Counted from the first letter of the stretch, positions 6,898 through 52,226 are shown. The stretch is DNA of 64,000 nucleotides from Anaerolineales bacterium (GCA_035286585.1 DATEDC010000067.1:1272-65271); one strand, 5' to 3'. Notes: generated from the letters alone by a model not told the origin. Numbers and translations are program-made.

Positions 6898-6917
6898 AAC
6901 ACCAAGATAAATCAATT

Positions 6918-7012
6918 CATGCACGGGGAGCCCGTAATTCTGGGCTGAGAGGAGAGCAAAAGCTCTCGACCCGCCAACCTGATCCGGATAATACCGGCGG
7001 AGGGATAGCATC
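6918..7012 (+). promoter_or_regulatory. TPP (THI-box) riboswitch aptamer
   Basis: CACGGGGAGCCCG...GGGCUGAGAGGAGAG...ACCCGCCAACCUGAUCCGGAUAAUACCGGCGGAGGGA matches the conserved TPP riboswitch core (GGGG..CUGAGA..ACCC..AACCUGAUCYGGAUAAURCCRGCG.AGGGA). Downstream genes are thiamine related. Confidence 0.9.
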
Positions 7013-7029
7013 ACCAAAGTATGCCACTA

Positions 7030-31190: not shown

Positions 31191-31466
31191 TTATCTCGTG
31201 CTGTCGTCTTCGGACTCGATTGCTCGCCAAAAATCCTCGTGTTTGATGCCCTTGCCTTCTCGGATTTGCCTTTCGGCAAGCTCAACGATGCTTCTATACT
31301 TGGGTGAATGAGCGATTAAGAGCCGCTCGATTTCGTCCTCGTCGGTGATCGCTAAAAGCGCCGCCACCGGTTTACCATTTTTGGTGACGACAACTGGACC
31401 CTGTTCGCTGGCCTTTAAATAGCCGCTAAACTTCGCTTTGATCTCTGCAACAGATGCAATTCTCAT
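31191..31466 (-). CDS. Type II antitoxin, Phd/YefM family
   Basis: MRIASVAEIKAKFSGYLKASEQGPVVVTKNGKPVAALLAITDEDEIERL is the canonical Phd/YefM N-terminal fold sequence. Confidence 0.85.
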   Translation of the reverse strand: MRIASVAEIKAKFSGYLKASEQGPVVVTKNGKPVAALLAITDEDEIERLLIAHSPKYRSIVELAERQIREGKGIKHEDFWRAIESEDDSTR

Positions 31467-31588: not shown

Positions 31589-31675
31589 CGGAGAGGGCGG
31601 GATTTGAACCCGCGGAGCCTTGCGGCTCACGCGCTCTCCAGGCGCGCGCGTTAGGCCAGACTACGCAACCTCTCC
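31589..31675 (-). tRNA. tRNA-Ser (anticodon GGA)
   Basis: The reverse complement folds as a cloverleaf: acceptor GGAGAGG/CCUCUCC, D arm GCGU/ACGC, anticodon stem CGCGC/GCGCG with loop CUGGAGA, 16-nt variable arm, T arm GCGGG-UUCAAAU-CCCGC, discriminator G. CCA is not encoded. Confidence 0.95.
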
Positions 31676-36499: not shown

Positions 36500-36524
36500 G
36501 TAACTTCAACCAACACCTGACGTT
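36500..36524 (+). promoter_or_regulatory. ECF-type promoter-like motif GTAAC-N16-CGTT
   Basis: GTAAC 36500-36504 and CGTT 36521-36524, 15 nt before the GTG start of the sigma gene. The same motif and geometry occur upstream of the paralogous sigma gene at 52202-52226. Confidence 0.5.
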
Positions 36525-36539: not shown

Positions 36540-37094
36540 GTGATTGATCCGTCAGAATTTGACACTACACAATTGCTCAATAAAGCTCGGAACGGCGATA
36601 CAGAGGCGTATGGCGAGTTATACGAAAGATATGCGCCCAGAGTATTTCGATACCTATATGCTCATCTGAATAATCGCCAAGACGCAGAAGATCTGACGGA
36701 GGAAGTGTTTATACGAGTCTGGCGGTCGATCGCCAGCTACAAGGAACAGGGTGTGCCCTACCTGGCTTACCTGTTCAGAGTCGCTCGCAATGCACTGATC
36801 GACCACTACCGCAAAAACGCCAGCACGAAGCAGGAGGTCTCCATTGCGGATATCTCTCTGCAGGATCGAACACAGGGGCCGGGGGATGCAGTGGCCGCGA
36901 TGCTGGAACATGAACAACTGCGCCAAAAGATGGGGAAATTGCGCGAGGATTACCGTACAGTACTGATTCTTCGCTTTTTAAGTGAGCTGTCACCTGAGGA
37001 GACAGCGCAAGTGATGGGGCGCTCAGCCGGAGCAGTGCGAGTTTTGCAGCACCGGGCTTTAGCCGCACTGCGAGAATTGATGGGCGAGACATAG
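36540..37094 (+). CDS. ECF-family RNA polymerase sigma-70 factor
   Basis: Region 2 (YERYAPRVFRYLYAHL, DAEDLTEEVFIRVW) and region 4 HTH (LSPEETAQVMGRSAGAVRVLQHRAL). Confidence 0.9.
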   Translation: MIDPSEFDTTQLLNKARNGDTEAYGELYERYAPRVFRYLYAHLNNRQDAEDLTEEVFIRVWRSIASYKEQGVPYLAYLFRVARNALIDHYRKNASTKQEVSIADISLQDRTQGPGDAVAAMLEHEQLRQKMGKLREDYRTVLILRFLSELSPEETAQVMGRSAGAVRVLQHRALAALRELMGET

Positions 37095-37108: not shown

Positions 37109-38413
37109 ATGGCAGCAACCCAGGAAGAATTCGCACGAATATTGGAGGTTTGCTTGGATCGTCTGCAGAGCGGGGAGGCAACGTTGGAGACAATTCTGGT
37201 TGAGCATCCGGACCTGGCGCCTGAGCTGCGCCCCTTGCTGGAGGTGGCTGCGTGGCTCCGGGCAAAGCAGACTGCGCTCGCGCCGCGCCCTGAATTTATC
37301 TCATCCTCCTGGGGTAACCTGGTCGCCCGGATGCGCCAGGAGCAAAGCGCCATGGATGGCGCACCCTCCCATATAACCTCTCGGGGCTCGTTTGAGCGCT
37401 TGCGGCGGTGGTTATTAGCTGTCAACCAACCTTTGAACAGAAGGCTGGCGCTCCAGTTTGTTATGGTCCTCGTTTTGCTGTTGGGGTTGATTGCTGGAGG
37501 TGCAGGCACTGCGGTTGCGTCTCAGCAGGCGTTGCCCGGAGAAGTGCTTTACCCTGTGAAAATCTCGCTCGAGCAGGTGGAGTTATTCCTCTCGGCGGAT
37601 GAGTCGAACGATATCCATTTACACTTACAATTTGCCCAACTGCGCAGCGCAGAAATGCAAAAGCTGGTGGATTTAAATCGCTATCTCTACCTGCGAGATA
37701 CGCTATCCAATTACCAATATCACGTCCATCAAGCTATCCGGCTGGTGGGTGTCCTTGCCAGCAAGGACCCTGAAAAAGCCATAGCGCTTGCCCCCGAAGT
37801 GCACCGTATTGTGGTCAGCCAGCCGGCAATTTTGAAAAATCTGGCTGAGTCCGTCCCGGAGCGCGTGTTTCCTGGTCTCACCGCAGCCGTGCAGGTTGCC
37901 GCCGGCTGGGTACAGACCATGGATAGCTTGCTGCAGGACCTGGGGATCGAGATAACCCCCACCCCAAAGGCGGAAGGCGCTGTCACCTCTACCCCAACCG
38001 GCACCACCACACCAACCTCTTTGCCCAGCGATAGCCCTACGCCGGGGTTTTCGCCCACTCTCACGGGCACTTCCACCCCGACGGGCACAGCGACTCAAAC
38101 GGGCACGGCAACCCCTGCCCTGACGCTCGCCAGGACGAATACAAGCACCCCGAGGTCGAGAGGTCCTCGTGTGACTCCAGGGGTCACACCGACCCCAACC
38201 GCTACGCTGGTTACGCCGACCAGCAAGCCCAGCAGAACCCCGACGCCCTCAGTCACCAGCCCTATTCCAACCGTAACGAGCACCCCGACCCCAACACCCA
38301 CGAGGACCTGGACTCCGACAGCCACACCGCTGCCCACCAGCACAGCCACGCCACCACCTACGAACACCCCTGCGCCGACCCCCACCCCTACCCTGCCGCC
38401 TTATCCCTATTAA
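37109..38413 (+). CDS. Membrane anti-sigma-like protein with extracytoplasmic DUF5667-type domain and Thr/Pro-rich tail
   Basis: Follows the sigma gene by 14 nt. N-terminal helical domain, one TM (LALQFVMVLVLLLGLIAGGAGTAVA), ALPGEVLYPVKISLEQVELF region, about 150-aa T/P-rich C-terminus. Confidence 0.7.
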   Translation: MAATQEEFARILEVCLDRLQSGEATLETILVEHPDLAPELRPLLEVAAWLRAKQTALAPRPEFISSSWGNLVARMRQEQSAMDGAPSHITSRGSFERLRRWLLAVNQPLNRRLALQFVMVLVLLLGLIAGGAGTAVASQQALPGEVLYPVKISLEQVELFLSADESNDIHLHLQFAQLRSAEMQKLVDLNRYLYLRDTLSNYQYHVHQAIRLVGVLASKDPEKAIALAPEVHRIVVSQPAILKNLAESVPERVFPGLTAAVQVAAGWVQTMDSLLQDLGIEITPTPKAEGAVTSTPTGTTTPTSLPSDSPTPGFSPTLTGTSTPTGTATQTGTATPALTLARTNTSTPRSRGPRVTPGVTPTPTATLVTPTSKPSRTPTPSVTSPIPTVTSTPTPTPTRTWTPTATPLPTSTATPPPTNTPAPTPTPTLPPYPY

Positions 38414-38597
38414 AAACCAAATGTCCGGGCAGGCATGCCGGCGGCACCCAGAGTGACCCGCTTACTGCTGCTTCCTCTCGGACCTGGCAGGATTCGCAGG
38501 TTTCTGCCGCGCCGGACCCACCCGGACGGTGGCGAGGATACCTCAGGGTAATATACTTGTCAATCCATTACCGCCAGCGGGCGGGCAAACCGCTTGT

Positions 38598-43020: not shown

Positions 43021-43053
43021 CTTTAAATAAGCAGAGCAGCCCTGAGGCTGCTC
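43021..43053 (-). terminator. Hairpin terminator after the Tad-like module
   Basis: Minus strand GAGCAGCC-UCAG-GGCUGCUC (43053-43034) followed by UGCUUAUUUAAAG, 47 nt after the TadG-like stop. Confidence 0.5.
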
Positions 43054-43099: not shown

Positions 43100-44464
43100 C
43101 TACTTGTATAATTCCAGGCTTGCCGGTGGTCGATAATTAATGGTGTTTTGGTAATTCACCACCACCTCGGTATTGCCATGAAGGAAAACCGTATCGCCGA
43201 TCAATTGGGCGTTGATCGTCTCCAAAGAGCCTCCGCCGGCTTCGATGGTACCCGAGGGAGCGTACACCGTTCCAATATAGTTGGAGCCAGAAGCGCCCAA
43301 GAGCACCACATCGTTCGTGTTGCCTTCGGCCAGGTAGATCAGCACGCCCGGGATGGCTGGCGGGCAGGTGTTGTTCTGGCAGGGGGCGATCTCCGGCAAC
43401 GGCGGCGCGACCAGATAAACTTCCACCGAGCCGCCCACGTAAAAATCTCCTTCGGTCAGGTAAATCGTCACGCCGCCCTCATCCTCCACCCGCACGGAAC
43501 CGCCGTTGATGGTGAAATCACGCGAGAGGCAATACAGCCCCGAGCGCAGCACCAGGTTGGTATTGGCGCTGTTGACCCGTATATAACCGTATCTCCCAGG
43601 GCTAATTGTGCCGCCGCCGCTGTGATCACCACGGTCGGACAGTGTTGAGCAACCCGAATCCGGCCCAGGGATGCGGTACGAAGCGGTGGGCAGCGGAGTG
43701 GTGCCCACCACCGGCGTCGGCGGGTCTACGCTGGGAGAACCGTTGGTGGTATAGCACCCTTCGCCAACACACCCAAGAGCCCCGCCATTTATGTCCACAT
43801 TGACCGAGCCACCCACCACGGCGCAGGCGTTGGACAGGATGCCACCTCCGTTGACCTGGATCGTGCTGTTGCCATCTATGTGAACGCCGCCCGTATTGCT
43901 GTTCGGGCAATCGGTGCGCAAAGCCACCACGGCGTTGCCAAAAGCGAGCGGCGAGCGCGGCCGCACGCGGGCAACAGCCGTCACCGTGTTACGCAGTGGT
44001 CCCTTATATACAAAATGGGCAAAGGTGGTGTTTGTATCAGTGGTGATGGTCGTGGTGATATCCAGATATTTATCGATCCACAGGCCGGTATTCTGTTGCC
44101 CGCATCTGAAAGTCGCACCATTCTGATCGCTGAGATCGTCATCGATGGCATAATCATTGCTCCCGGCGCGGCTGATGGCAGCATTCAAACCCGCCTGGCC
44201 TGCATTGACGATCTGGGTGTAGATCGGGTCGCCTGAGTTGGTGCAGGCCCAGTTCTCATAATCCACGTAATGGTTTTCCAGGTATAAAGCCGCCGTGGCT
44301 GCGCCCCCCAGCGAGGAGGCATCAGACGCATTTTGAGCGTGGCGGCGGTTTGAATAAACCATGCCGCCATCGACAGCCAGGGCGGTGAAACCCAATAAAA
44401 CGACAAACCCAAGCACCAATAACACCAGTGCCTGGCCCTTCTCTTGTGATAGTTGCTTATTCAT
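43100..44464 (-). CDS. TadG-like pseudopilin/pilus-assembly protein with beta-helix-like C-terminal region
   Basis: AAAGGAG RBS before the ATG at 44464. N-terminus EKGQALVLLVLGFVVLLGFTALAVDGGMVY..R..QNASDASSLGGA matches the Tad N-terminal (TadG) signature. C-terminus is rich in G-x-V/I repeats (GTVYAPSGTIEAGGGS). Confidence 0.7.
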   Translation of the reverse strand: MNKQLSQEKGQALVLLVLGFVVLLGFTALAVDGGMVYSNRRHAQNASDASSLGGAATAALYLENHYVDYENWACTNSGDPIYTQIVNAGQAGLNAAISRAGSNDYAIDDDLSDQNGATFRCGQQNTGLWIDKYLDITTTITTDTNTTFAHFVYKGPLRNTVTAVARVRPRSPLAFGNAVVALRTDCPNSNTGGVHIDGNSTIQVNGGGILSNACAVVGGSVNVDINGGALGCVGEGCYTTNGSPSVDPPTPVVGTTPLPTASYRIPGPDSGCSTLSDRGDHSGGGTISPGRYGYIRVNSANTNLVLRSGLYCLSRDFTINGGSVRVEDEGGVTIYLTEGDFYVGGSVEVYLVAPPLPEIAPCQNNTCPPAIPGVLIYLAEGNTNDVVLLGASGSNYIGTVYAPSGTIEAGGGSLETINAQLIGDTVFLHGNTEVVVNYQNTINYRPPASLELYK

Positions 44465-44492
44465 CCCCACATCTCCTTTTGTATCAACGATT

Positions 44493-44939
44493 CTATGTAC
44501 AGGCCGGAGCCAATACCGTATCCGTAACTGTGGCAGTGATATCCACCGCCTGCCTGCCCAGGATCGCTCCCAGATATGGCATGGTGATCGGAAAATTTTG
44601 ATAAGTAACCCGAACTGTAATGGCTTCACCGGTGCACGGTGAGCCGTCATGGGTTACATTGATGACAATCCTGCCGGAGCTCACCAGATCATTGAGAATA
44701 TTCGAGTTGTTACTAATGCGAGTCTGGATGCCAGCCGCATCCGTGGGATTATACGAGCCGTACAAAGCCCCTTCCTGAGCAGAATCGCGCAGCGACATGT
44801 AGGTAAACAACGCCCTGCCCACGTCCGCCAACCCGGCCAGCAAGACCAGGAGGACCACCAGGCTGATACTGAATTCCAGCAGGCTTTGACCCTGTTCCGA
44901 GTTATTTCTATTTTTTTCAGCCAAATTATTCATATGCAC
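44493..44939 (-). CDS. TadE/TadF-like pseudopilin
   Basis: 148 aa; SEQGQSLLEFSISLVVLLVLLAGLADVG is a prepilin-like TadE motif with Glu at +5 after the Gly. Confidence 0.75.
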   Translation of the reverse strand: MHMNNLAEKNRNNSEQGQSLLEFSISLVVLLVLLAGLADVGRALFTYMSLRDSAQEGALYGSYNPTDAAGIQTRISNNSNILNDLVSSGRIVINVTHDGSPCTGEAITVRVTYQNFPITMPYLGAILGRQAVDITATVTDTVLAPACT

Positions 44940-44961
44940 ACCTGTACTTCAAGCATGTTGA

Positions 44962-47364
44962 TCAGCGCCACCCAAAAGCCACGTAAATATCCCAAACACC
45001 CTCATAGGGAGCGTTTCCCTGACCGGAGAAGCTGGTTTGGACCAGCGGGTTGGCTGAGGCGCCGGTAGCAAAGATCATGGGCGGGGTCAGCAGGCTGCCG
45101 TCTCCGCCAAGCGCCGCATAATACAAGAAGTCATTCCACTCTACATCCAGCCAGGTCAGGATTGCGTAGCCCCCTTCCGCATAGGTCACTGAGACGTAAT
45201 CCGGCTTGCGCGTTCCCGCCAGGGGCAGGTCGGATGGAGCGCGCAAGAGAGCGCTGCCGTCGGGATCCAGCACAGCATAAGCAATCCTTTCCGTTGCCGG
45301 ATTAGTCCAAGCCAAAACAAGATTGCCATTGGCGACCCGCACTCCATCGCTACGCCAGCCGCTGCTGCCAGGGATGGTCGCAGGGGATGCGGTCACGTTT
45401 CCTGAGCTGTTAACCATGGCGTAGGCGATCGAGTAAGTCTCAGAGATCTGGCTGTACACTGTGTAAGCAAACAAGGCGCCGGCGTTAGCATTCACCAGGT
45501 CCGGGTCAAGCAAAAGGGTGCTGCCAGCGACGCTCTGGGTGAGCATTTGCGGTCCGGCGGTGACCTGGGCGCCGGTTGTGGTATAGCTGGCGTAATAAAT
45601 CGTATTCACCTCGTTATCGCCTGCCTGGAGGCGGTTATCCAGCCAGCCTAAAAGGAAACGGTTGTCATCCGTAGCGATAAGGCGCGGCGAGGAGTACAAC
45701 GGGATGTCGTAATCGCCTGTGCCGCGCCACTGGCTGTTGTTGGTCAGGTTCACCGGCCCATAAATTTGATCCCCCTGGGCGTTCAAAACAGCAAACCAAA
45801 CATTCGAATTCCGGCGAATGTCGGGCAGTGTGGATAAATCAAGCTGATACTGCACCCAGAGCAAAGCGAGCTTACCATCCCCAGCAACTGAAACCGCCGG
45901 GTAGCGCGCGTTCACCAAAAGGGTCGGCGTGGCCAGATTCTGATTTTGAGTGAGCGCAGTAGTTGGCCGGAGGACAAATCCGAATTTGTTTAAGACCTGG
46001 TACTCGATATTGGAGTAATTCACGCCGGAGCTGAAACCATTTTTCTCCCAGGCGTATAGATAGCTGCCACCCAGCCTGCCATCCAGCGAGAGCGTGTTGC
46101 CGGTGAAATAGGTAGCGACATGCTTATTACGAGAGTTCAGCGCCCAGACCTGTCTCAGGTGCATGCCCGACTGGCTGTCAGCGTATGCCTGGGCAAAGGG
46201 CGCCGGAATCGCGACCTGTGCGGTGGTGTTCGCCGATTTCGTGTCGTCCAACGAAGAAGTCACGAACAGGGTGATCACGGTGTAATCGGTCACCTGAGCT
46301 GCCTCTGGCGCGACAACCCTGAAGGCGATCTCCAGCGTGGCGCCCTGGGCGAGCAAACCGCTATCGACCATGCCATCCAGGTTCGTATCCACGAGCGCAG
46401 CGCTGTTATCCGCTCGATAGAAAGAGACTGTCCAACCCGAGGCGCTCGAAACTGCGGTCAGATTGAGGGTGTCGGGACCCAACTCGCCAATATTGCTCAC
46501 CGAAGCCTGGAATTGGGTGTAGATGTTGTAGCTGAGAGCGCTTTGATAGAGCGGAGCTACTTTGGCGTTCGCCGCAGGGGTGGGACGGAAAAAGTGAAGA
46601 GCCAGGCCTGAGGTCAATCCCGGGGCGTTATACAGATAGAGCAAGCCATTCACACCATCCTGGTCCTCTATCCCCACCGTAGCATTGACCAGGTCCCCGT
46701 TGAGATCTTGGTACTGGAAAAGAATATCGCCATTCTCGAAAAGAACGACCTCGAAAGTAAGCAGGTCAGCGCTACCGAACTTCACCACCTGATGCCATTC
46801 GATTACAAAGCGCCGGGGAGAGGCGCTGTCGAACCAGTAATAAACCTGTCCAGCGCCTAGCTGCAGATCGTCCCAAAATGGGGCAACCAGATTGTTCGGA
46901 ACCGAATCCAGCGGGAGAAACTGGTTGGAGAAGGCGCTGCTGCCGGTTTCGAAGGTAAGCATGCCATTGGTGCTGATAAAAAGCTGGTTATAGGTGTTTT
47001 CGTAGAATTTAAAGTCGAAACCGATATCAATCGGGGCAGTGAAATCGTCGTCGGGATCAGAAAACAGCGCCTGAGTGCCTTTGGAGGTAAGATCTTCCCA
47101 GGCAAAGGCCACACCGTCATCCAGGGTATAGCCAAAAGGGTCAGAGCTGGAAGCCGCGGCGCTCGAAACACCACCCTGAGCCAGCTGCTTGTGCCAGTCA
47201 TCGTAGGCTTGCTCCGATCCGGCCTCAGGTTTTTTCTCCGGAGGAGGCGGCTCCTCCCCGCCCAATGCCGAAGAATATGCCTGAGCTGGAACGCCTGTGC
47301 TGCCGTCCAGGACGAGCAAGATCAGAAATATGACCAGGCAGATTCGATAAAATCCTGACCTCAC
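44962..47364 (-). CDS. Secreted 800-aa protein: signal peptide, NIDO-like region, beta-sandwich, beta-propeller-like C-terminal half
   Basis: GTG start with a GGAG RBS. Signal peptide ...LVLDGSTGVPAQA. ISTNGMLTF...VAPFWDDL...FVIEWHQV...TFEVVLFENGDILFQY block. Six to seven repeats of a hydrophobic-x-W blade-like pattern in the C-terminal 400 aa. Confidence 0.7.
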   Translation of the reverse strand: MRSGFYRICLVIFLILLVLDGSTGVPAQAYSSALGGEEPPPPEKKPEAGSEQAYDDWHKQLAQGGVSSAAASSSDPFGYTLDDGVAFAWEDLTSKGTQALFSDPDDDFTAPIDIGFDFKFYENTYNQLFISTNGMLTFETGSSAFSNQFLPLDSVPNNLVAPFWDDLQLGAGQVYYWFDSASPRRFVIEWHQVVKFGSADLLTFEVVLFENGDILFQYQDLNGDLVNATVGIEDQDGVNGLLYLYNAPGLTSGLALHFFRPTPAANAKVAPLYQSALSYNIYTQFQASVSNIGELGPDTLNLTAVSSASGWTVSFYRADNSAALVDTNLDGMVDSGLLAQGATLEIAFRVVAPEAAQVTDYTVITLFVTSSLDDTKSANTTAQVAIPAPFAQAYADSQSGMHLRQVWALNSRNKHVATYFTGNTLSLDGRLGGSYLYAWEKNGFSSGVNYSNIEYQVLNKFGFVLRPTTALTQNQNLATPTLLVNARYPAVSVAGDGKLALLWVQYQLDLSTLPDIRRNSNVWFAVLNAQGDQIYGPVNLTNNSQWRGTGDYDIPLYSSPRLIATDDNRFLLGWLDNRLQAGDNEVNTIYYASYTTTGAQVTAGPQMLTQSVAGSTLLLDPDLVNANAGALFAYTVYSQISETYSIAYAMVNSSGNVTASPATIPGSSGWRSDGVRVANGNLVLAWTNPATERIAYAVLDPDGSALLRAPSDLPLAGTRKPDYVSVTYAEGGYAILTWLDVEWNDFLYYAALGGDGSLLTPPMIFATGASANPLVQTSFSGQGNAPYEGVWDIYVAFGWR

Positions 47365-47406
47365 AACAAACTCCGATAAACTTGCGGGGAGATCGATCTC
47401 CCCGGG

Positions 47407-50043
47407 TTAATTCCCAATCCGCTTGCTGAACGGCAGGCAGTTGGCAAAACGGGCGCTCACCACAATCTCCTGCCCGGCGGACATATTCGGCTGCCGATCG
47501 AACAGGAATGTCATCTGGCGGGCGCTGAACACACCGCTCCACAATGGGCTGGGGTTGACTACATCCAGGTAGCCCAGGCTGGCAGGGTAATAAAAGCTGT
47601 TGCCGATCGGGTTATTGCCGAACACGATGCTTTCCAGGGCTGCATTGTTAGTAGTCGGCCAAAACACCGTCACTTCAAGCAAGTTGGTCGTGTTGGGATC
47701 CGTATTCTGCAGCTCCCAGATCAACTTTTTGTTGTCGTTGCCAGTGCCAAAATATGGATCGGAGGCTGCTGTCGGACATATCCAGGCGGTAATGGTTGCG
47801 ATGTGGCGATCGTAGGTAGAGCTGCGGGTAGCGTTCACCGGCGTGCCCATGAAAACATCTACGGTCTCATTCCCCTCACCCAGCTCTTCATCGTGAATGA
47901 CCTGGATAGTGATCGTAGCCTCGGTGCTGCCGGCGGGAATAAACACCGTGTCGCTTGGCGAGATAGTGTAATCAGCGCCTGGCGTGGCTGAACCGCCCAC
48001 CGAGAACGGCACGGTAACATCCCGACCGGACACGGGGCTCAGCCGGACGGTGATGAGCATCTGCCCAACGTCCTCCATCCCGGATTGGGAGGGGGAGGTG
48101 AAATACACCAGCGGAGGCGCTTCGTCATCCAAAATTGTAATCGTGTGCACGCTGGGAGAACCGAGGGTGACGTTGCTGGGCGGGCCCATGGTGAGAATAA
48201 CGGTTTCATCGTCCTCGTCCAGGGCATCGTTGACTACAATGACAGATATACTGCCCGTGGCGCTGCCCGCCGGGATCGAAATTTGCCCAGAGGTGACAGT
48301 ATAGTCCGCCCCATTTGCAGCCGTGCCGCTCAGGCTGAAAGGCACGACCACATTTTGGTAGTAAGCCGAGCTGAGCTGTGCGACCACGCTCAGTGTGCCA
48401 ATGCCTTCAGACTCAGCCTGACTGACCCGGGCGAACGAAACCGTTGGCGGCACAGGCGAGGCAGTGACCGTAAGGGTATGCTCACCCGGCGCTCCCAGGG
48501 TGGCGTTCAGCGGGGCGCCCATCGTTAAGATAATGGTTTCTTCCGTTTCATAATTGTCACCATTGTTTATGATGGTCACCGCTATGCTGGCGGTAGTCTG
48601 TCCCGCCGGAATCACCACTAAACCTGGCGGGAGGCTGTAATCCACTCCCCCCTCTGCGGTGCCCCCAAGCGTGTAAGGAACCTCTACCTGCTTGCCAGAA
48701 GGGGCGCTCAGGCTCACCTCTATATACACCGTACCGGCATTTTCGGGCGCCTCAGAGGCCTCCCAGGTGAAATAAACTAACGGCGGGGCGTCGTTATCGA
48801 TGATCGTGGCTGTATGTACATTGGCAGCCCCCTTAAAGGCGTTCACCGGCTCGCCCATCACAAGCATAAAATTTTCATCCTCTTCGTCGATCGCATCAAA
48901 GCTCGTGGTAAATAAAATCAGCTTGCTGGTTTCACCCGGCGCAAAAGTTACCGGGCTGGAGGTGTTGAGCACATAATCCCCACCCAGGGTCGCGGTGCTG
49001 CTAATCACGTCCGCGCTGAATGGAACCGTTACCGTTCTGCCTGAGGGGTTGCTGAGATCCACCCTGACAAAGGCGCTGACCCCATCCACGCCATCGTCCT
49101 CTTGCAAATTCTGGGTCTCCGGAATGAAATCTGCGGTGGGAGGGTCGTCATCATCGGCGATAGTGATCAAATGGGTATCCGGTGAACCGATGTTGCCGTT
49201 ATCGACATTGACAATTCGCAGCAGCACGGTTTCATCGTCTTCATCGGTCAGGTCCGGGACGATGGTGACAGACACGGCGGCGCTCACATCTCCAGCCAGG
49301 ATTACAACCGGGCTGGCGGTATCCAGGCTGAAATCGCCGCCGGCTGCTGCGGAGCTGGCGCCGGCATCCAGGTTAAAATGGACGGTCACATTGCTGGCCG
49401 TCGGTCCGCTCAGGCGGAGCTGAACGTTCACCACGCGCGGCGTGCCCGGGTCACCTGGGTCGCCTTCATCGACGGTTTGCTCTGCGGGGGAAAAAGATAC
49501 GCTCACGCTGCCTGAGGGGGCAGGCGGCGTGCCCTGAATAGAAATATCTTTCAGTATCGTGCGCGCCGAGGTGGACATAATTGGGAAGGAGGGGATGCGC
49601 AGTAACGGGAGCAAGGGTCGATACAGCGCTAAAACAGACACCACCACCCGGTGACCAAGCTCCACATTGGCAGGACCGTAGCCGTTCGCCGGGCAGTTCC
49701 CAAAGGCATGAGCGGGATCGCCATCATCGTAATTGATGCTGATGTCCCCATTTTCGATCCCTACCAGCGTGCCCATCCTGCGGGCGGCAGCGCGCATCCC
49801 ATCACAGTCGCGATAATGCGGGATGTAATTGCCCACATTGCCGGCAGCGGACCCGTAGCGGGCAGCTTCACGGCTGGAGGTGAAAACCATGCTGTAGATG
49901 AAGAGCAGGCGACCGAACTCGATCAGGGCAAACATCACTAAGAGCAGCAATGGAAGCACCAGGGCAAACTCAACCAGACCCTGGGCTCGCTCGTGTTTAT
50001 CCAACCTTCTCATGAGAGCACCTGTTTTAGCCAATATATTCAT
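47407..50043 (-). CDS. TadE-like N-terminal domain fused to five Calx-beta repeats and a unique about 125-aa C-terminal domain
   Basis: HERAQGLVEFALVLPLLLLVMFALIEFG TadE motif (an alternative ATG at 50013 gives a 12-aa leader). Five segments of about 110 aa each carry the Calx-beta pattern (V.F....V.E..G...V.V.LS......V.VP....G.TA..G.DY......V.I.AG........V...D...E..E...L.M). Confidence 0.8.
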   Translation of the reverse strand: MNILAKTGALMRRLDKHERAQGLVEFALVLPLLLLVMFALIEFGRLLFIYSMVFTSSREAARYGSAAGNVGNYIPHYRDCDGMRAAARRMGTLVGIENGDISINYDDGDPAHAFGNCPANGYGPANVELGHRVVVSVLALYRPLLPLLRIPSFPIMSTSARTILKDISIQGTPPAPSGSVSVSFSPAEQTVDEGDPGDPGTPRVVNVQLRLSGPTASNVTVHFNLDAGASSAAAGGDFSLDTASPVVILAGDVSAAVSVTIVPDLTDEDDETVLLRIVNVDNGNIGSPDTHLITIADDDDPPTADFIPETQNLQEDDGVDGVSAFVRVDLSNPSGRTVTVPFSADVISSTATLGGDYVLNTSSPVTFAPGETSKLILFTTSFDAIDEEDENFMLVMGEPVNAFKGAANVHTATIIDNDAPPLVYFTWEASEAPENAGTVYIEVSLSAPSGKQVEVPYTLGGTAEGGVDYSLPPGLVVIPAGQTTASIAVTIINNGDNYETEETIILTMGAPLNATLGAPGEHTLTVTASPVPPTVSFARVSQAESEGIGTLSVVAQLSSAYYQNVVVPFSLSGTAANGADYTVTSGQISIPAGSATGSISVIVVNDALDEDDETVILTMGPPSNVTLGSPSVHTITILDDEAPPLVYFTSPSQSGMEDVGQMLITVRLSPVSGRDVTVPFSVGGSATPGADYTISPSDTVFIPAGSTEATITIQVIHDEELGEGNETVDVFMGTPVNATRSSTYDRHIATITAWICPTAASDPYFGTGNDNKKLIWELQNTDPNTTNLLEVTVFWPTTNNAALESIVFGNNPIGNSFYYPASLGYLDVVNPSPLWSGVFSARQMTFLFDRQPNMSAGQEIVVSARFANCLPFSKRIGN

Positions 50044-50463
50044 TTATATATGCCTGAATGACTAATTTTTCACATTTTTATGCCACTGAAAAGCAAAAAC
50101 CGCCTCCGACCTGTATCGATTATAACGACGCTCATGCAACACTGCTACACAAAAATTGTAAGCCTATCAAAATTGTATTGTGAGTGATTTTAGCCAAAAC
50201 TATTGTAATCTCTGGCTGCTTTTCAGCCCTCCCCGATCGGGAGCGCCGGTAACATTCCCTCTCAGCCGCTCACAGTTCTTCAGGAATCGTCGCCGCGTTC
50301 ACGGCAATTGCGACAGGCCCCACTCAGAACATCAAAATGCAAACAAAGATGCAAATATTCACGCGCATCCGTGTTTAATTGATTATAGAGCAAATTTTTC
50401 GTTTGGGTGTTTAAGGGTTGATTAACCGGCTACCCATTTTTCCTAGTATGTCCGGGGGCCCTA

Positions 50464-51621
50464 CTAGGGACGGCGAGTCGGGCTGGGGAGAGGCCGCCGC
50501 GTCTTGGTGGGCTTGGGCTCTTCCTCGGTAGGCTGCTCCGTGGGCTGCTCCGTGGGCTGCGGCGTGCTGACTGCCTGCCGGGTAGCTGAGGGAACGGGGG
50601 TAGAAGATGGCAGCCAGGTGGGACTTGGCGTCAGTGTATAGGTTCCAGTGGGCGTCAAGGTGGGCGTCAAAGTAGGCGTACCGGTAAGCGTGCTCGTGGA
50701 GGTGGCGGTTGAGGTTTCCGTTGGTGTGGGAGTAGCAATAGCTTCTACCTGAGATGGCTCCTGCGTAGGCGAGCCAGTGGGAACCCCAATCGAATCCAGA
50801 ACCCCCTGCACCGAGGAGCTCCCACCTTGGGCGACCGTCACCGCCCTGGTAATCTCGCTCTTTAGCTGGGTTGGGATCAGCTCGGCCAGAACCTGGAGGC
50901 TGGCGACATGGCTGGCAAGAGCGCTCTGAAATACTACTGCCAGCTCACTGGCCTGGGCTGCATTGCGTCTCGATAGTTGATCGAGCAGTGTCACTGCCCG
51001 AACAATGTGGTTTTCAAAGCGATTCACTGTTGCGCCGATAAATTCATAGCGCCCCTCCAGGAACAGGCCTTGAATCTCAACTATACGCCGGGCGGAGAAC
51101 TCGATGTGCAGGCGAATATCACCCGCCATGCCCGGACTGAAAAACAGCTCCACCCCCTCGAGCGTTGTTTTTAGCGGGTACAACTGGTCGCCGGGTAAAG
51201 CATCCTGGGCGGCAAAAGCAACCCCTGTTCCACCAGTAAACATGGTGAGGAGAAGAACAAACACCAGCGCGATCTGCAGGGCAAAGCGCCGGCGCGCCGG
51301 GGCGCCTGACGGCACGATCTGGCTCCAGATATGCTTTAGCCAGCCTATCACCTGCTGGCTGACTGGCAGCGCTGAGGCTGCCTGCTCCTGCTGCAAACGA
51401 TACACCAGGCGCTGGCGAGAAGCGCTCACAAACCCGGGACGCGACTCCAGATCGCTGCGCCTGGCAGCCAACCACAGCGCGGCCTCCAGGCGAGGGCGCA
51501 GCTCGTCAGCCGCTTCCGGATAGCGAGCCAGAGCTTCTTCAATGGAAACATCCCCGCTCTGGACCAGTTCCAGGCAGGATTGCAAGACAAGCTCCAGCTC
51601 ATTCAGGCGATCAGACATCAA
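50464..51621 (-). CDS. Membrane anti-sigma-like protein with DUF5667-type domain and Thr/Pro-rich tail (paralogue of 37109-38413)
   Basis: Same architecture and collinear similarity (LESCLELVQSG..., ALPGDQLYPLKTTLEGVELFF). Overlaps the sigma gene by 4 nt. Confidence 0.7.
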   Translation of the reverse strand: MMSDRLNELELVLQSCLELVQSGDVSIEEALARYPEAADELRPRLEAALWLAARRSDLESRPGFVSASRQRLVYRLQQEQAASALPVSQQVIGWLKHIWSQIVPSGAPARRRFALQIALVFVLLLTMFTGGTGVAFAAQDALPGDQLYPLKTTLEGVELFFSPGMAGDIRLHIEFSARRIVEIQGLFLEGRYEFIGATVNRFENHIVRAVTLLDQLSRRNAAQASELAVVFQSALASHVASLQVLAELIPTQLKSEITRAVTVAQGGSSSVQGVLDSIGVPTGSPTQEPSQVEAIATPTPTETSTATSTSTLTGTPTLTPTLTPTGTYTLTPSPTWLPSSTPVPSATRQAVSTPQPTEQPTEQPTEEEPKPTKTRRPLPSPTRRP

Positions 51622-52184
51622 TCAAACCCTACCGCGCCCTCCATCAAGCTTCGCAGAGCAATCAGAGCCCTGTGCTGCAGAACGCGTACAGCTCCCGAGC
51701 TACGGCCCATCGCTTGCGCCGTCTCCTCTGGAGATAATTCACCAAGATATCGTAACACCAAAACCGTGCGATAGTCCTCACGCAACTTCTCCAATGTCTG
51801 GCGCAGTTTCTGGTGTTCCAGGTCAATCATCACGGCTTCCACCGGTCCTGGACTGTGATCCTTGAGAGGCAGGTCCTCCAAGGCCACATCCCTTTTTAAA
51901 CCACCTGACCGGCGATAATGATCGATCAGGGCGTTTCGCGCAACGCGAAACAGAAACGCAAGAAACGGAACGCCCTGTTCGCGATAACCAGATAAGGATT
52001 TCCACACCCGCAAGAAGACATCTTCGGTTAGATCCTCGGCATCCAGGCGATCATCCAGGTGAGCATATAAAAAGCGAAATACTCTCCCTGCATAGCGCTC
52101 GTATAATTCGCCGAACGCCTCAGCGTCGCCGCTTTGCGCGGCTATCAGCAGTTGAATGTCATCAACTCGTTGCCAGTCTGACAT
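51618..52184 (-). CDS. ECF-family RNA polymerase sigma-70 factor (paralogue of 36540-37094)
   Basis: YERYAGRVFRFLYAHL, DAEDLTEDVFLRVW, LSPEETAQAMGRSSGAVRVLQHRAL. Roughly two-thirds identical to the other ECF sigma by eye. Confidence 0.9.
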   Translation of the reverse strand: MSDWQRVDDIQLLIAAQSGDAEAFGELYERYAGRVFRFLYAHLDDRLDAEDLTEDVFLRVWKSLSGYREQGVPFLAFLFRVARNALIDHYRRSGGLKRDVALEDLPLKDHSPGPVEAVMIDLEHQKLRQTLEKLREDYRTVLVLRYLGELSPEETAQAMGRSSGAVRVLQHRALIALRSLMEGAVGFD

Positions 52185-52201
52185 CAAATGCTATCCCATA
52201 A

Positions 52202-52226
52202 AACGTTTCCACAGGTTTAATGTTAC
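52202..52226 (-). promoter_or_regulatory. ECF-type promoter-like motif GTAAC-N16-CGTT
   Basis: Minus strand GTAAC 52226-52222 and CGTT 52205-52202, 17 nt before the ATG at 52184. Confidence 0.5.

Follow-up and report, generated by a model that had tools for sequence, protein, structure and literature searches.

What a set of Tad pilus-tip genes does when none of the genes that build a pilus lies beside it is the question raised by a six-gene block in an Anaerolineales bacterium. The block lies in a window of 64,000 nucleotides (nt), one strand of the metagenome contig GCA_035286585.1 DATEDC010000067.1:1272-65271, and runs along its minus strand from a gene for an extracytoplasmic function (ECF) sigma factor (51618-52187) through a gene for a membrane protein with a DUF5667 domain (50464-51621) and a 420-nt spacer free of open reading frames (ORFs; 50044-50463) to four tightly packed genes. 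These four, with gaps of 42, 22 and 28 nt between them, encode a TadE protein with Calx-beta domains (TadE1, 878 amino acids (aa); 47407-50043), a NIDO-Ig-beta-propeller protein of 800 aa (44962-47364), a second TadE protein (TadE2, 148 aa; 44493-44939) and a TadG-like protein (454 aa counted from an internal ATG; 43100-44464). The analysis suggests that the block is probably the tip/priming operon of the Tad pilus (type IVc) in Anaerolineae (tadE-tadE-tadG), kept apart from the pilus machinery and conditionally expressed through an ECF sigma/DUF5667 switch.

A preliminary description of the locus had reported the six ORFs with their order on the minus strand, their overlap and gaps, their domains and a hairpin terminator. 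ORF calls and a Pfam hidden Markov model search of the six proteins agree with it, and the Pfam assignments exceed gathering thresholds where these are stated below. The hairpin (43034-43053, minus strand) is G+C-rich with eight pairs, six of them G-C, is followed by a T-rich tail and is likely to end the operon as its terminator.

Three of the four packed genes encode Tad pilins. TadE1 matched the Pfam family TadE with E 7e-11 (42.5 bits against a cut-off of 22.9) and Calx-beta in five stretches (E 8.5e-47); TadE2 matched TadE with E 1.8e-9 (38.0 bits against 22.9) and, weakly, Tad and N_methyl; the TadG-like protein matched Tad (PF13400) with E 1.2e-11 (45.2 bits against 22.3) and DUF7305. 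For the six proteins, NCBIfam added nothing specific beyond a general ECF superfamily match. The leaders in the window, with an arrow at the predicted cleavage site, read A↓QGLVEF in TadE1, G↓QSLLEF in TadE2 and G↓QALVLL in TadG, and alignment of 16-18 orthologues, 18 of them for TadE2, gave the consensus [A/G]↓Q[GSAT]MVEF, G↓QSLVEF and G↓QALVLL, respectively. Both TadE leaders, with a small residue at -1, Glu at +5 and then a hydrophobic helix, fit the consensus G/A-X4-F/E of the prepilin peptidase CpaA (PMC12607857). In the N-terminal alignment Glu+5 is conserved in both TadE proteins, and TadG alone is without it. Apical subunits of the GspK/PilX type are expected to lack this residue, and since it is missing from TadG as from GspK/PilK-type caps, TadG is read here as the apical subunit.

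Genes for the remainder of a Tad system were sought in the window and around related cassettes. Among the 48 window ORFs covered by Pfam (the six of the cassette and 42 others over the remaining window), none matched T2SSE/CpaF, T2SSF/TadBC, Peptidase_A24, CpaB/RcpC or Flp, and a regular-expression search of the window found no Flp-type short prepilin, a search that a very short or divergent flp ORF could escape. For comparison, 26 cassette loci from about 22 distinct genomes, all Anaerolineae/Chloroflexota, were fetched. A phmmer survey with the six window proteins over all fetched loci listed 18 of them, counting the window's own contig (L001) and a duplicate of L002 (L003); eight more (L085, L086, L088, L089 and L091-L094) were added after the survey. 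Its output also contained L014 and L016, which have neither TadE nor TadG and stand outside the 18. A Walker-A regular expression for T2SSE/VirB11-type ATPases, run over about 35 loci, returned ABC-type proteins only, and this screen together with Pfam lists placed no Tad machinery gene within 10 kb of the cassette in about 20 loci. The Pfam lists of 12 contexts hold a single Peptidase_A24 gene, 1.3 kb from the cassette in L002. The canonical layout, in which tadE/F/G lie inside a flp-tadV-rcpCAB-tadZABCD operon, was found neither in the window nor within 10 kb in the approximately 20 related loci. The statement in the preliminary description that Flp, TadA/CpaF, TadB/C and prepilin peptidase are lacking in the 64 kb therefore holds, and a check for relatives with the block embedded in a complete tad operon returned none within 10 kb.

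Such separation has been published for the phylum. In Chloroflexales, rcpC-tadZABC, 'tadEEG' and flp form separate clusters (Gaisin et al. 2020, PMC7332563), and the Anaerolineales pilus cluster flp/pilA-cpaB-cpaE-cpaF-tadB-tadC is without tadE/G and is transcribed (Xia et al. 2016, PMC4877987). Since the core of the cassette recurs and published Chloroflexota keep tadEEG apart, the block is best regarded as the lineage's ordinary tip/priming complex and not as an exotic one. The earlier proposal of a module plugging into a pilus and a prepilin peptidase encoded elsewhere is thus supported, but what it describes is the phylum's normal state and the concept is in print. The companion claim of an unprecedented composition had to be abandoned, because a split 'tadEEG' is the published norm (PMC7332563, PMC4877987) and Tip clusters are known from Myxococcus (PMC12075869).

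The gene order tadE1-(slot)-tadE2-tadG, where the slot is the position of the 800-aa gene, is conserved in the phmmer survey at 32-85% identity. The TadG-like protein is commoner than the 800-aa family (536 matches, the best 120 of which all show at least 43% identity), and the contexts of its gene define tadE1-tadE2-tadG as the conserved core. In several genomes the cassette also keeps its chromosomal position, with polysaccharide-flippase, Bac_transf, LytR and RrnaAD genes on one side and aconitase and DHPS genes on the other, so that it looks like a core locus. Comparison of neighbourhoods, as had been suggested earlier, showed that the four-gene order recurs together with the sigma pair in Chloroflexota, but that the slot gene and the regulator vary by locus; the four-gene block initially outlined accordingly reduces to a recurrent minor-pilin core plus an optional 800-aa gene, which is missing from otherwise identical cassettes.

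The regulatory genes upstream of this core were examined for their family membership and distribution. The sigma factor (189 aa) matched Sigma70_r2 (E 2e-20), Sigma70_r4_2 (E 1e-13) and also Sigma70_ECF; it carries regions 2 and 4 only, as in group IV (ECF), and scored 109.6 bits against a cut-off of 42.9 for TIGR02937 (sigma70-ECF). This general superfamily cut-off is the only one it passes in NCBIfam, the best specific match being BldN-type at 136 bits against a 206-bit cut-off. The partner crosses the membrane once and has an extracytoplasmic DUF5667 domain (Pfam E 1e-10) and a Pro/Thr-rich tail. The two genes overlap by 4 nt, or by 1 nt with a start at the ATG at 51618, which suggests that the DUF5667 gene is translationally coupled to the sigma gene and that its product is a putative anti-sigma factor, a purely positional and topological assignment made from gene position, overlap and membrane topology. 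In 12 of the 14 loci of the first scan with enough flank (phmmer survey) the pair stands directly upstream of the cassette on the same strand, and L086, L088 and L091-L093 have it as well; adjacency and strand are kept over 32-85% protein identity. In L002 about 2.6 kb and extra ORFs separate the pair from tadE1. Upstream of the cassette in L018 (6162-8425) and L094 (2543-5759) a histidine kinase and a LuxR-type response regulator replace it, and no regulator adjoins the cassette in L089.

A common promoter was sought by enumerating bipartite motifs upstream of the sigma gene and of tadE1 in 12 loci (24 sequences) and comparing them with shuffles. The best motif, GTAAC-N16-CGTT, with the extended form TGTAACAAA…CGTTC, was found exactly in 18 of the 24 sequences, against a shuffle maximum of 3-4 of 24. 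Of the 12 loci, 11 have an exact copy before the sigma gene and 7 have one before tadE1, and 3-4 additional loci match upstream of tadE1 with one mismatch. The motif is absent from the three cassettes without a sigma pair (L018, L089 and L094), and in L085 it still precedes tadE1 despite a rearranged upstream region. The arrangement 'AAC…CGT' is the textbook form of an ECF promoter. In the window, an exact match on the minus strand at 52202-52226 (TGTAACATT-N-ACGTT), whose CGTT end (52202) lies about 15 nt upstream of the sigma start codon at 52187/52184, is a putative autoregulatory promoter of the sigma gene; exact matches number two in the window against 0.15 expected, the other one preceding a second sigma pair. 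A putative promoter of the tadE1 operon was located by motif scan and alignment at 50124-50148 on the same strand (GTAGC-N16-CGTT, one mismatch, -10 region CGTTATAAT); the site is conserved in the closest relative, L091, and both L091 and L092 have its -10 unchanged. Taken together, conserved synteny and the common ECF promoter motif indicate a genuine sigma link across the family, supporting the coupling of the block to the adjacent sigma/anti-sigma genes that had been put forward for this locus.

The spacer between the DUF5667 gene and tadE1 contains further conserved sequence. When 50044-50463 was aligned with its two closest relatives, long invariant blocks appeared, among them an inverted repeat GGATGC-N12-GCATC at about 50348-50370 and several blocks containing TACAAT, all invariant against relatives with about 74% protein identity; these may be additional operator sites. 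Two other candidates were discarded. A structured RNA in the 420-nt spacer found no Rfam match there, all matches lying elsewhere in the window, and sigma-70-type promoters in the region stood at chance level (7 matches against 5.9 expected).

The second sigma/DUF5667 pair of the window lies on the plus strand (sigma 36540-37094, DUF5667 37109-38413) behind an exact copy of the promoter motif at 36500-36524, and its sigma factor is a paralogue of the one in the cassette (phmmer E 6e-79). In the closest relatives (L091, L092 and L088) the second pair sits just downstream of tadG, whereas in the window the aconitase/DHPS block stands between it and the cassette and the two are on opposite strands, so that a local rearrangement is implied. 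Ancestrally, two such pairs flank the cassette, and they may recognise each other's promoters.

TadE1 proved to be modular. Alignment with orthologues of 269-380 aa resolved a pilin domain of about aa 1-175, a linker or stalk, and a conserved C-terminal head of about 120 aa, and the five Calx-beta domains occupy the place of the relatives' Pro/Thr-rich linker. Calx-beta domains occur in some lineages, including L006, L007, L012, L015, L034, L061, L085/L086, L088, L091 and L092; other lineages have a Pro/Thr linker or other inserts, and Calx-beta was rejected as a defining feature of the system. The special place that the preliminary description had given to the Calx-beta protein as the largest member of the block thus gives way to a lineage-specific exchange of a linker in a conserved TadE1. 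Because the array replaces a flexible linker, it is best read as a stiff stalk, and we infer that it would hold the TadE1 head in a rigid, Ca2+-dependent manner.

In the AlphaFold2 model of TadG (predicted local distance difference test, pLDDT, 88.9) a long alpha1 helix leads into a small pilin beta-sheet, a beta-helix (DUF7305) and a last strand at aa 449-452. The C-terminus P-A-x-L-E-L-x-K, conserved across relatives, spans this predicted terminal strand. Foldseek matched the model to beta-solenoids of the ice-binding type, with Thermus ComZ as a weak second match (E 2.4e-3). No vWA domain was matched by Pfam, the distal domain being a beta-helix, so the protein is not a canonical TadG/CpaL. 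In L089 (10001-12722), a cassette without the sigma pair, the TadG-like gene is tandemly duplicated.

The 800-aa protein between the two TadE genes is of a different kind. Its only Pfam match at E <= 0.01 is NIDO. The AlphaFold2 model (pLDDT 89.9, predicted template modelling score 0.85) places in order a signal peptide, a disordered linker, a NIDO-like beta-sandwich, an Ig-like domain, a beta-propeller (aa ~390-790) and a short tail, and the best Foldseek matches are sialidase and lectin beta-propellers with about 10% identity. Homology to PilY1/PilC was considered and rejected, having no sequence or Pfam support and no PilY1 among the top 50 Foldseek matches, which are generic propellers. 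About 100 full-length relatives were found, almost all in Anaerolineae/Chloroflexota; contig look-ups and a single scan of the species genomes in GTDB supplied their contexts. Of the 18 surveyed cassette loci, 16 have the gene between tadE1 and tadE2, as do L091, L092 and L094. The slot is empty in L085, L086 and L088, and in L089 and L093 it holds an unrelated CSLREA/choice-of-anchor-Q protein of 413-422 aa, so the pilin set can do without the 800-aa gene. Some 20 paralogues of greater length occur by themselves, with no pilin genes beside them. Outside the phylum, a full-length Chloroflexota-type homologue with 38% identity occurs on a 4-kb contig labelled 'Archaeoglobales archaeon' (L014, QMZE01000167.1), a label that is probably a binning error, and the resemblance of two Thermoplasmata contigs (L041/L042) is limited to the NIDO-domain part.

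The tail of the 800-aa family follows the pattern hydrophobic-hydrophobic-(L/M/I)-P-x-x-x-(R/K)-COOH in at least 72 of about 92 full-length members; in the window's own clade the Pro is replaced by Ala/Ser (...IYVAFGWR; window 44962-44990). It is too short for a membrane anchor. The choice-of-anchor-Q proteins that fill the slot elsewhere share it (...LLMPLLIR, L089:9440-9472; ...VFLPVIYH, L093:9440-9472), and it also ends Anaerolineae exoproteins encoded far from pilin genes, namely NHL and BNR propellers, an S-layer-like protein and a multihaem cytochrome (four genes in L027; L089:17727-21329; L004:5735-7033), with examples such as YLPLILR and FLPLVMRN. The idea that the tail is specific to the cassette, stand-alone paralogues having exchanged it for an extra domain, was rejected, since these paralogues and unrelated exoproteins carry it as well. 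For the same reason the tail is regarded as a general tag of Anaerolineae exoproteins. No description of it was found, and it could serve in sorting or anchoring as a tag not yet described. A more specific role, as a docking peptide donated as a beta-strand to the TadE/TadG tip and loading tagged exoproteins onto the Tad pilus, is conceivable from the sequence pattern, and we put it forward tentatively as an unlikely one.

These observations can be arranged into a model in which the sigma switch and the cleavage of leaders rest on sequence evidence, and tip assembly, display and the role of the slot accessory are inferred. An extracytoplasmic cue would be sensed by the DUF5667 protein, which would release the sigma factor, and the freed sigma factor would then act at the TGTAAC-N16-CGTT promoters of its own gene and of tadE1. 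The three prepilins produced, whose class-III leaders follow the pattern [A/G]↓Q-x-x-x-(E or hydrophobic), would be cut by a peptidase encoded elsewhere. On the Tad platform they might assemble into a heterotrimeric initiation/tip complex with TadG apical, TadE2 as the small core pilin and TadE1 as the third subunit, which would prime Flp polymerisation and remain at the pilus tip. There it would display adhesive modules, the beta-helix of TadG and the TadE1 head on its Ca2+-stiffened stalk of five Calx-beta domains. The 800-aa protein, exported by Sec, would be an optional and exchangeable accessory co-expressed with the tip, and possibly tethered to it by the conserved C-terminal tail in the manner of PilY1, PilC and MshQ.

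Several observations weigh against this account of a sigma-controlled tip operon. The one-mismatch motif is not significant alone across the window (7 found against 5.5 expected), and the paralogous sigma factor at 36540, whose gene has an identical motif, may be the one that drives tadE1. Neither Pfam nor NCBIfam matched an anti-sigma domain model to the cytoplasmic N-terminal 110 aa of the DUF5667 protein, and DUF5667 is not mentioned in the literature searched. Control by a sigma factor is not obligatory, since L018 and L094 use two-component regulators and L089 has no adjacent regulator. Cassettes without the 800-aa gene exist, as do paralogues of it without pilin genes. No Tad machinery was found in what is covered of this genome, the 64-kb window of a metagenome contig.

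Three other explanations were weighed. The sigma and DUF5667 genes might be mere neighbours, regulating themselves or divergent envelope polysaccharide genes and not the pilin operon. Such pairs are indeed multi-copy (two in the window, up to three around the cassette in L088), the match before tadE1 in the window is imperfect, and in L002 about 2.6 kb with extra ORFs lie between the pair and tadE1. Set against this are the frequency of the motif before tadE1 (exact in 7 of 12 loci, with one mismatch in 3-4 more) and its consistent absence from sigma-less cassettes, its persistence in L085 after upstream rearrangement, and the constant strand and adjacency of the pair over 32-85% protein identity, which together make this explanation quite unlikely. 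Alternatively, the block might be an accessory tip cassette in a genome with another, primary minor-pilin set, the sigma factor gating an exchange of tips. Myxococcus offers the model, having four interchangeable KilLMN tip sets (Tip1-4) for one Tad pilus, three of them remote from the machinery, and genetic work there showed such detached clusters to serve a pilus encoded at another site (PMC12075869); dedicated signal-responsive regulators, the ECF sigma factor or the two-component system of L018 and L094, argue for conditional expression, TadG is duplicated in L089, and the content of the cassette is very variable, stalk, slot gene and regulator all differing among loci. However, tadE/G are wholly missing from the Anaerolineales machinery cluster (PMC4877987), just one 'tadEEG' cluster is reported for Chloroflexales (PMC7332563), the conserved chromosomal position in several genomes suggests a core locus, and a second tadE/G set was not seen in any fetched flank. 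We therefore consider an accessory tip unlikely.

The remaining explanation dispenses with the Flp fibre: a short pseudopilus or a membrane-anchored stalk would export or hold the exoprotein, either like a type II secretion system or by simple anchoring. It draws on the lack of any machinery gene within 10 kb in about 20 cassette loci, on the gene for a secreted protein embedded in the operon and on the C-terminal tail that the slot proteins have in common. No pseudopilus works without prepilin peptidase, ATPase and platform protein, and 'pilus-independent' can therefore only mean that no long fibre is made. Moreover, Glu+5 in both TadE proteins and its lack in TadG alone are the signature of subunits stacked under a cap in a filament, Anaerolineae transcribe Tad machinery together with Flp (PMC4877987), cassettes with an empty slot are common, and the tail is found on many exoproteins distant from pilin genes. 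A pilus-independent use of the TadE fold, one of the two options of the preliminary description, is accordingly disfavoured by the three prepilin-type leaders and the Glu+5 of both TadE proteins, and we regard it as very unlikely. A tip/priming operon under an ECF sigma/DUF5667 switch is preferred to all three.

The other 42 ORFs of the window are housekeeping genes, for a GAF histidine kinase, a thiamine ABC transporter, pyrimidine synthesis, cytochrome bc, a thiolase, HPPK, DHPS, aconitase, envelope polysaccharide functions and UbiD. Rfam identified, besides a tRNA, a thiamine pyrophosphate (TPP) riboswitch at 6914-7023 (plus strand), ahead of thiamine pyrophosphokinase and ABC-transporter genes, and a bacterial small signal recognition particle RNA at 38424-38523 (minus strand), between the second DUF5667 gene and the aconitase gene. 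The segment 30000-32000 has a G+C fraction of 0.50-0.51 against about 0.59 and only short ORFs; it contains a gene for a Phd/YefM-like antitoxin (31191-31466, minus strand) with a tRNA gene adjoining (31589-31675, minus strand) and may be the remnant of a small integrated element.

What is less usual about the cassette is its sigma-controlled promoter pair, a TadE1 built as stalk and head, a variable slot and the common C-terminal tail. The locus offers a testable circuit, in which an ECF sigma factor, a DUF5667 sensor and a TGTAAC-N16-CGTT promoter precede a pilus-tip operon, and a natural series of tip variants with a Pro/Thr or Calx-beta stalk and with a slot that is empty or holds a propeller or a beta-helix protein. 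Bacillus subtilis SigX and SigW are examples of ECF sigma/anti-sigma pairs with 'AAC-N16/17-CGT' promoters. With such classical pairs the cassette genes share a sigma factor of two domains, a single-pass membrane partner, probably co-transcribed, and a putative autoregulatory promoter (TGTAAC-N16-CGTT); they differ in that the partner, with its DUF5667 ectodomain, matches no recognisable anti-sigma model and that the target is a pilus-tip operon.

Among pilus systems, the nearest counterparts are in the same phylum, where the 'tadEEG' cluster of Chloroflexota (PMC7332563) and the Anaerolineales cluster (PMC4877987) likewise have two TadE genes and one TadG gene apart from the machinery and flp; both reports list genes only, and describe no sigma/DUF5667 linkage, promoter, modular TadE1 or slot gene. 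Tad pili are the main and highly transcribed surface appendage of Anaerolineae, which are among the core filament- and floc-forming bacteria of digesters, sludge and sediments (PMC4877987). The KilL/KilM/KilN Tip of Myxococcus xanthus (Herrou et al. 2025, PMC12075869) resembles the cassette in its three TadE/F/G-like pilins acting as a tip, its remote clusters, its large pilin with a variable distal domain and the concept of an adaptable tip. Nothing in the Kil clusters corresponds to the embedded non-pilin exoprotein, the Calx-beta stalk or the control by an ECF sigma factor; in the cassette, besides TadG, a TadE-type pilin carries the variable module and a separate slot gene is present. Orthologues of the Kil Tip (tip1-4) are reported to be confined to Myxococcota (PMC12075869).

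CpaJ/CpaK/CpaL of Caulobacter and TadE/TadF/TadG of Aggregatibacter also combine two small pseudopilins with a large TadG-type protein and have the leader G/A-X4-E/F (PMC12607857, PMC13533445). Their genes lie inside or beside the tad/cpa operon, unlike the cassette, and their CpaL/TadG carries vWA where the cassette protein carries a beta-helix (DUF7305). For TadG/CpaL the role of a PilK/GspK-like cap has been proposed, with a strand at its extreme C-terminus completing the pilin sheet of the same protein in cis (PMC13533445, PMC12607857). Thermus thermophilus ComZ (PDB 6QVI) resembles the TadG model as a large minor pilin with a beta-solenoid grafted onto the pilin fold, but the match is weak (E 2.4e-3, template modelling score ~0.19) and the competence system that ComZ serves is of type IVa and not Tad.

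For the slot protein, the closest comparison is with the tip modules PilVWX-PilY1 (PilIJK-PilC) of type IVa pili and MshDOP-MshQ of MSHA pili (PMC13533445), in which a large Sec-exported non-pilin with a C-terminal beta-propeller is encoded among minor-pilin genes and has a short conserved extreme C-terminus. PilY1, PilC and MshQ supply the terminal beta-strand in trans (PMC13533445, PMC12607857). Unlike PilY1/PilC, to which it has no sequence or Pfam relation, the 800-aa protein is encoded by a dispensable gene and shares its tail with many unrelated exoproteins, and the tail may mark a signal for exoprotein sorting or anchoring in a poorly studied, monoderm-like phylum. If it does dock, the Tad pili of Anaerolineae would be sigma-gated display platforms for exchangeable tagged exoproteins, a counterpart of PilY1/PilC/MshQ. 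Tad systems have so far been described without a PilY1 equivalent, their tips being thought to consist of TadE/F/G only with a PilK-like strand in cis (PMC13533445), and a trans-acting partner with a PilY1-like role would, if confirmed, extend that model.

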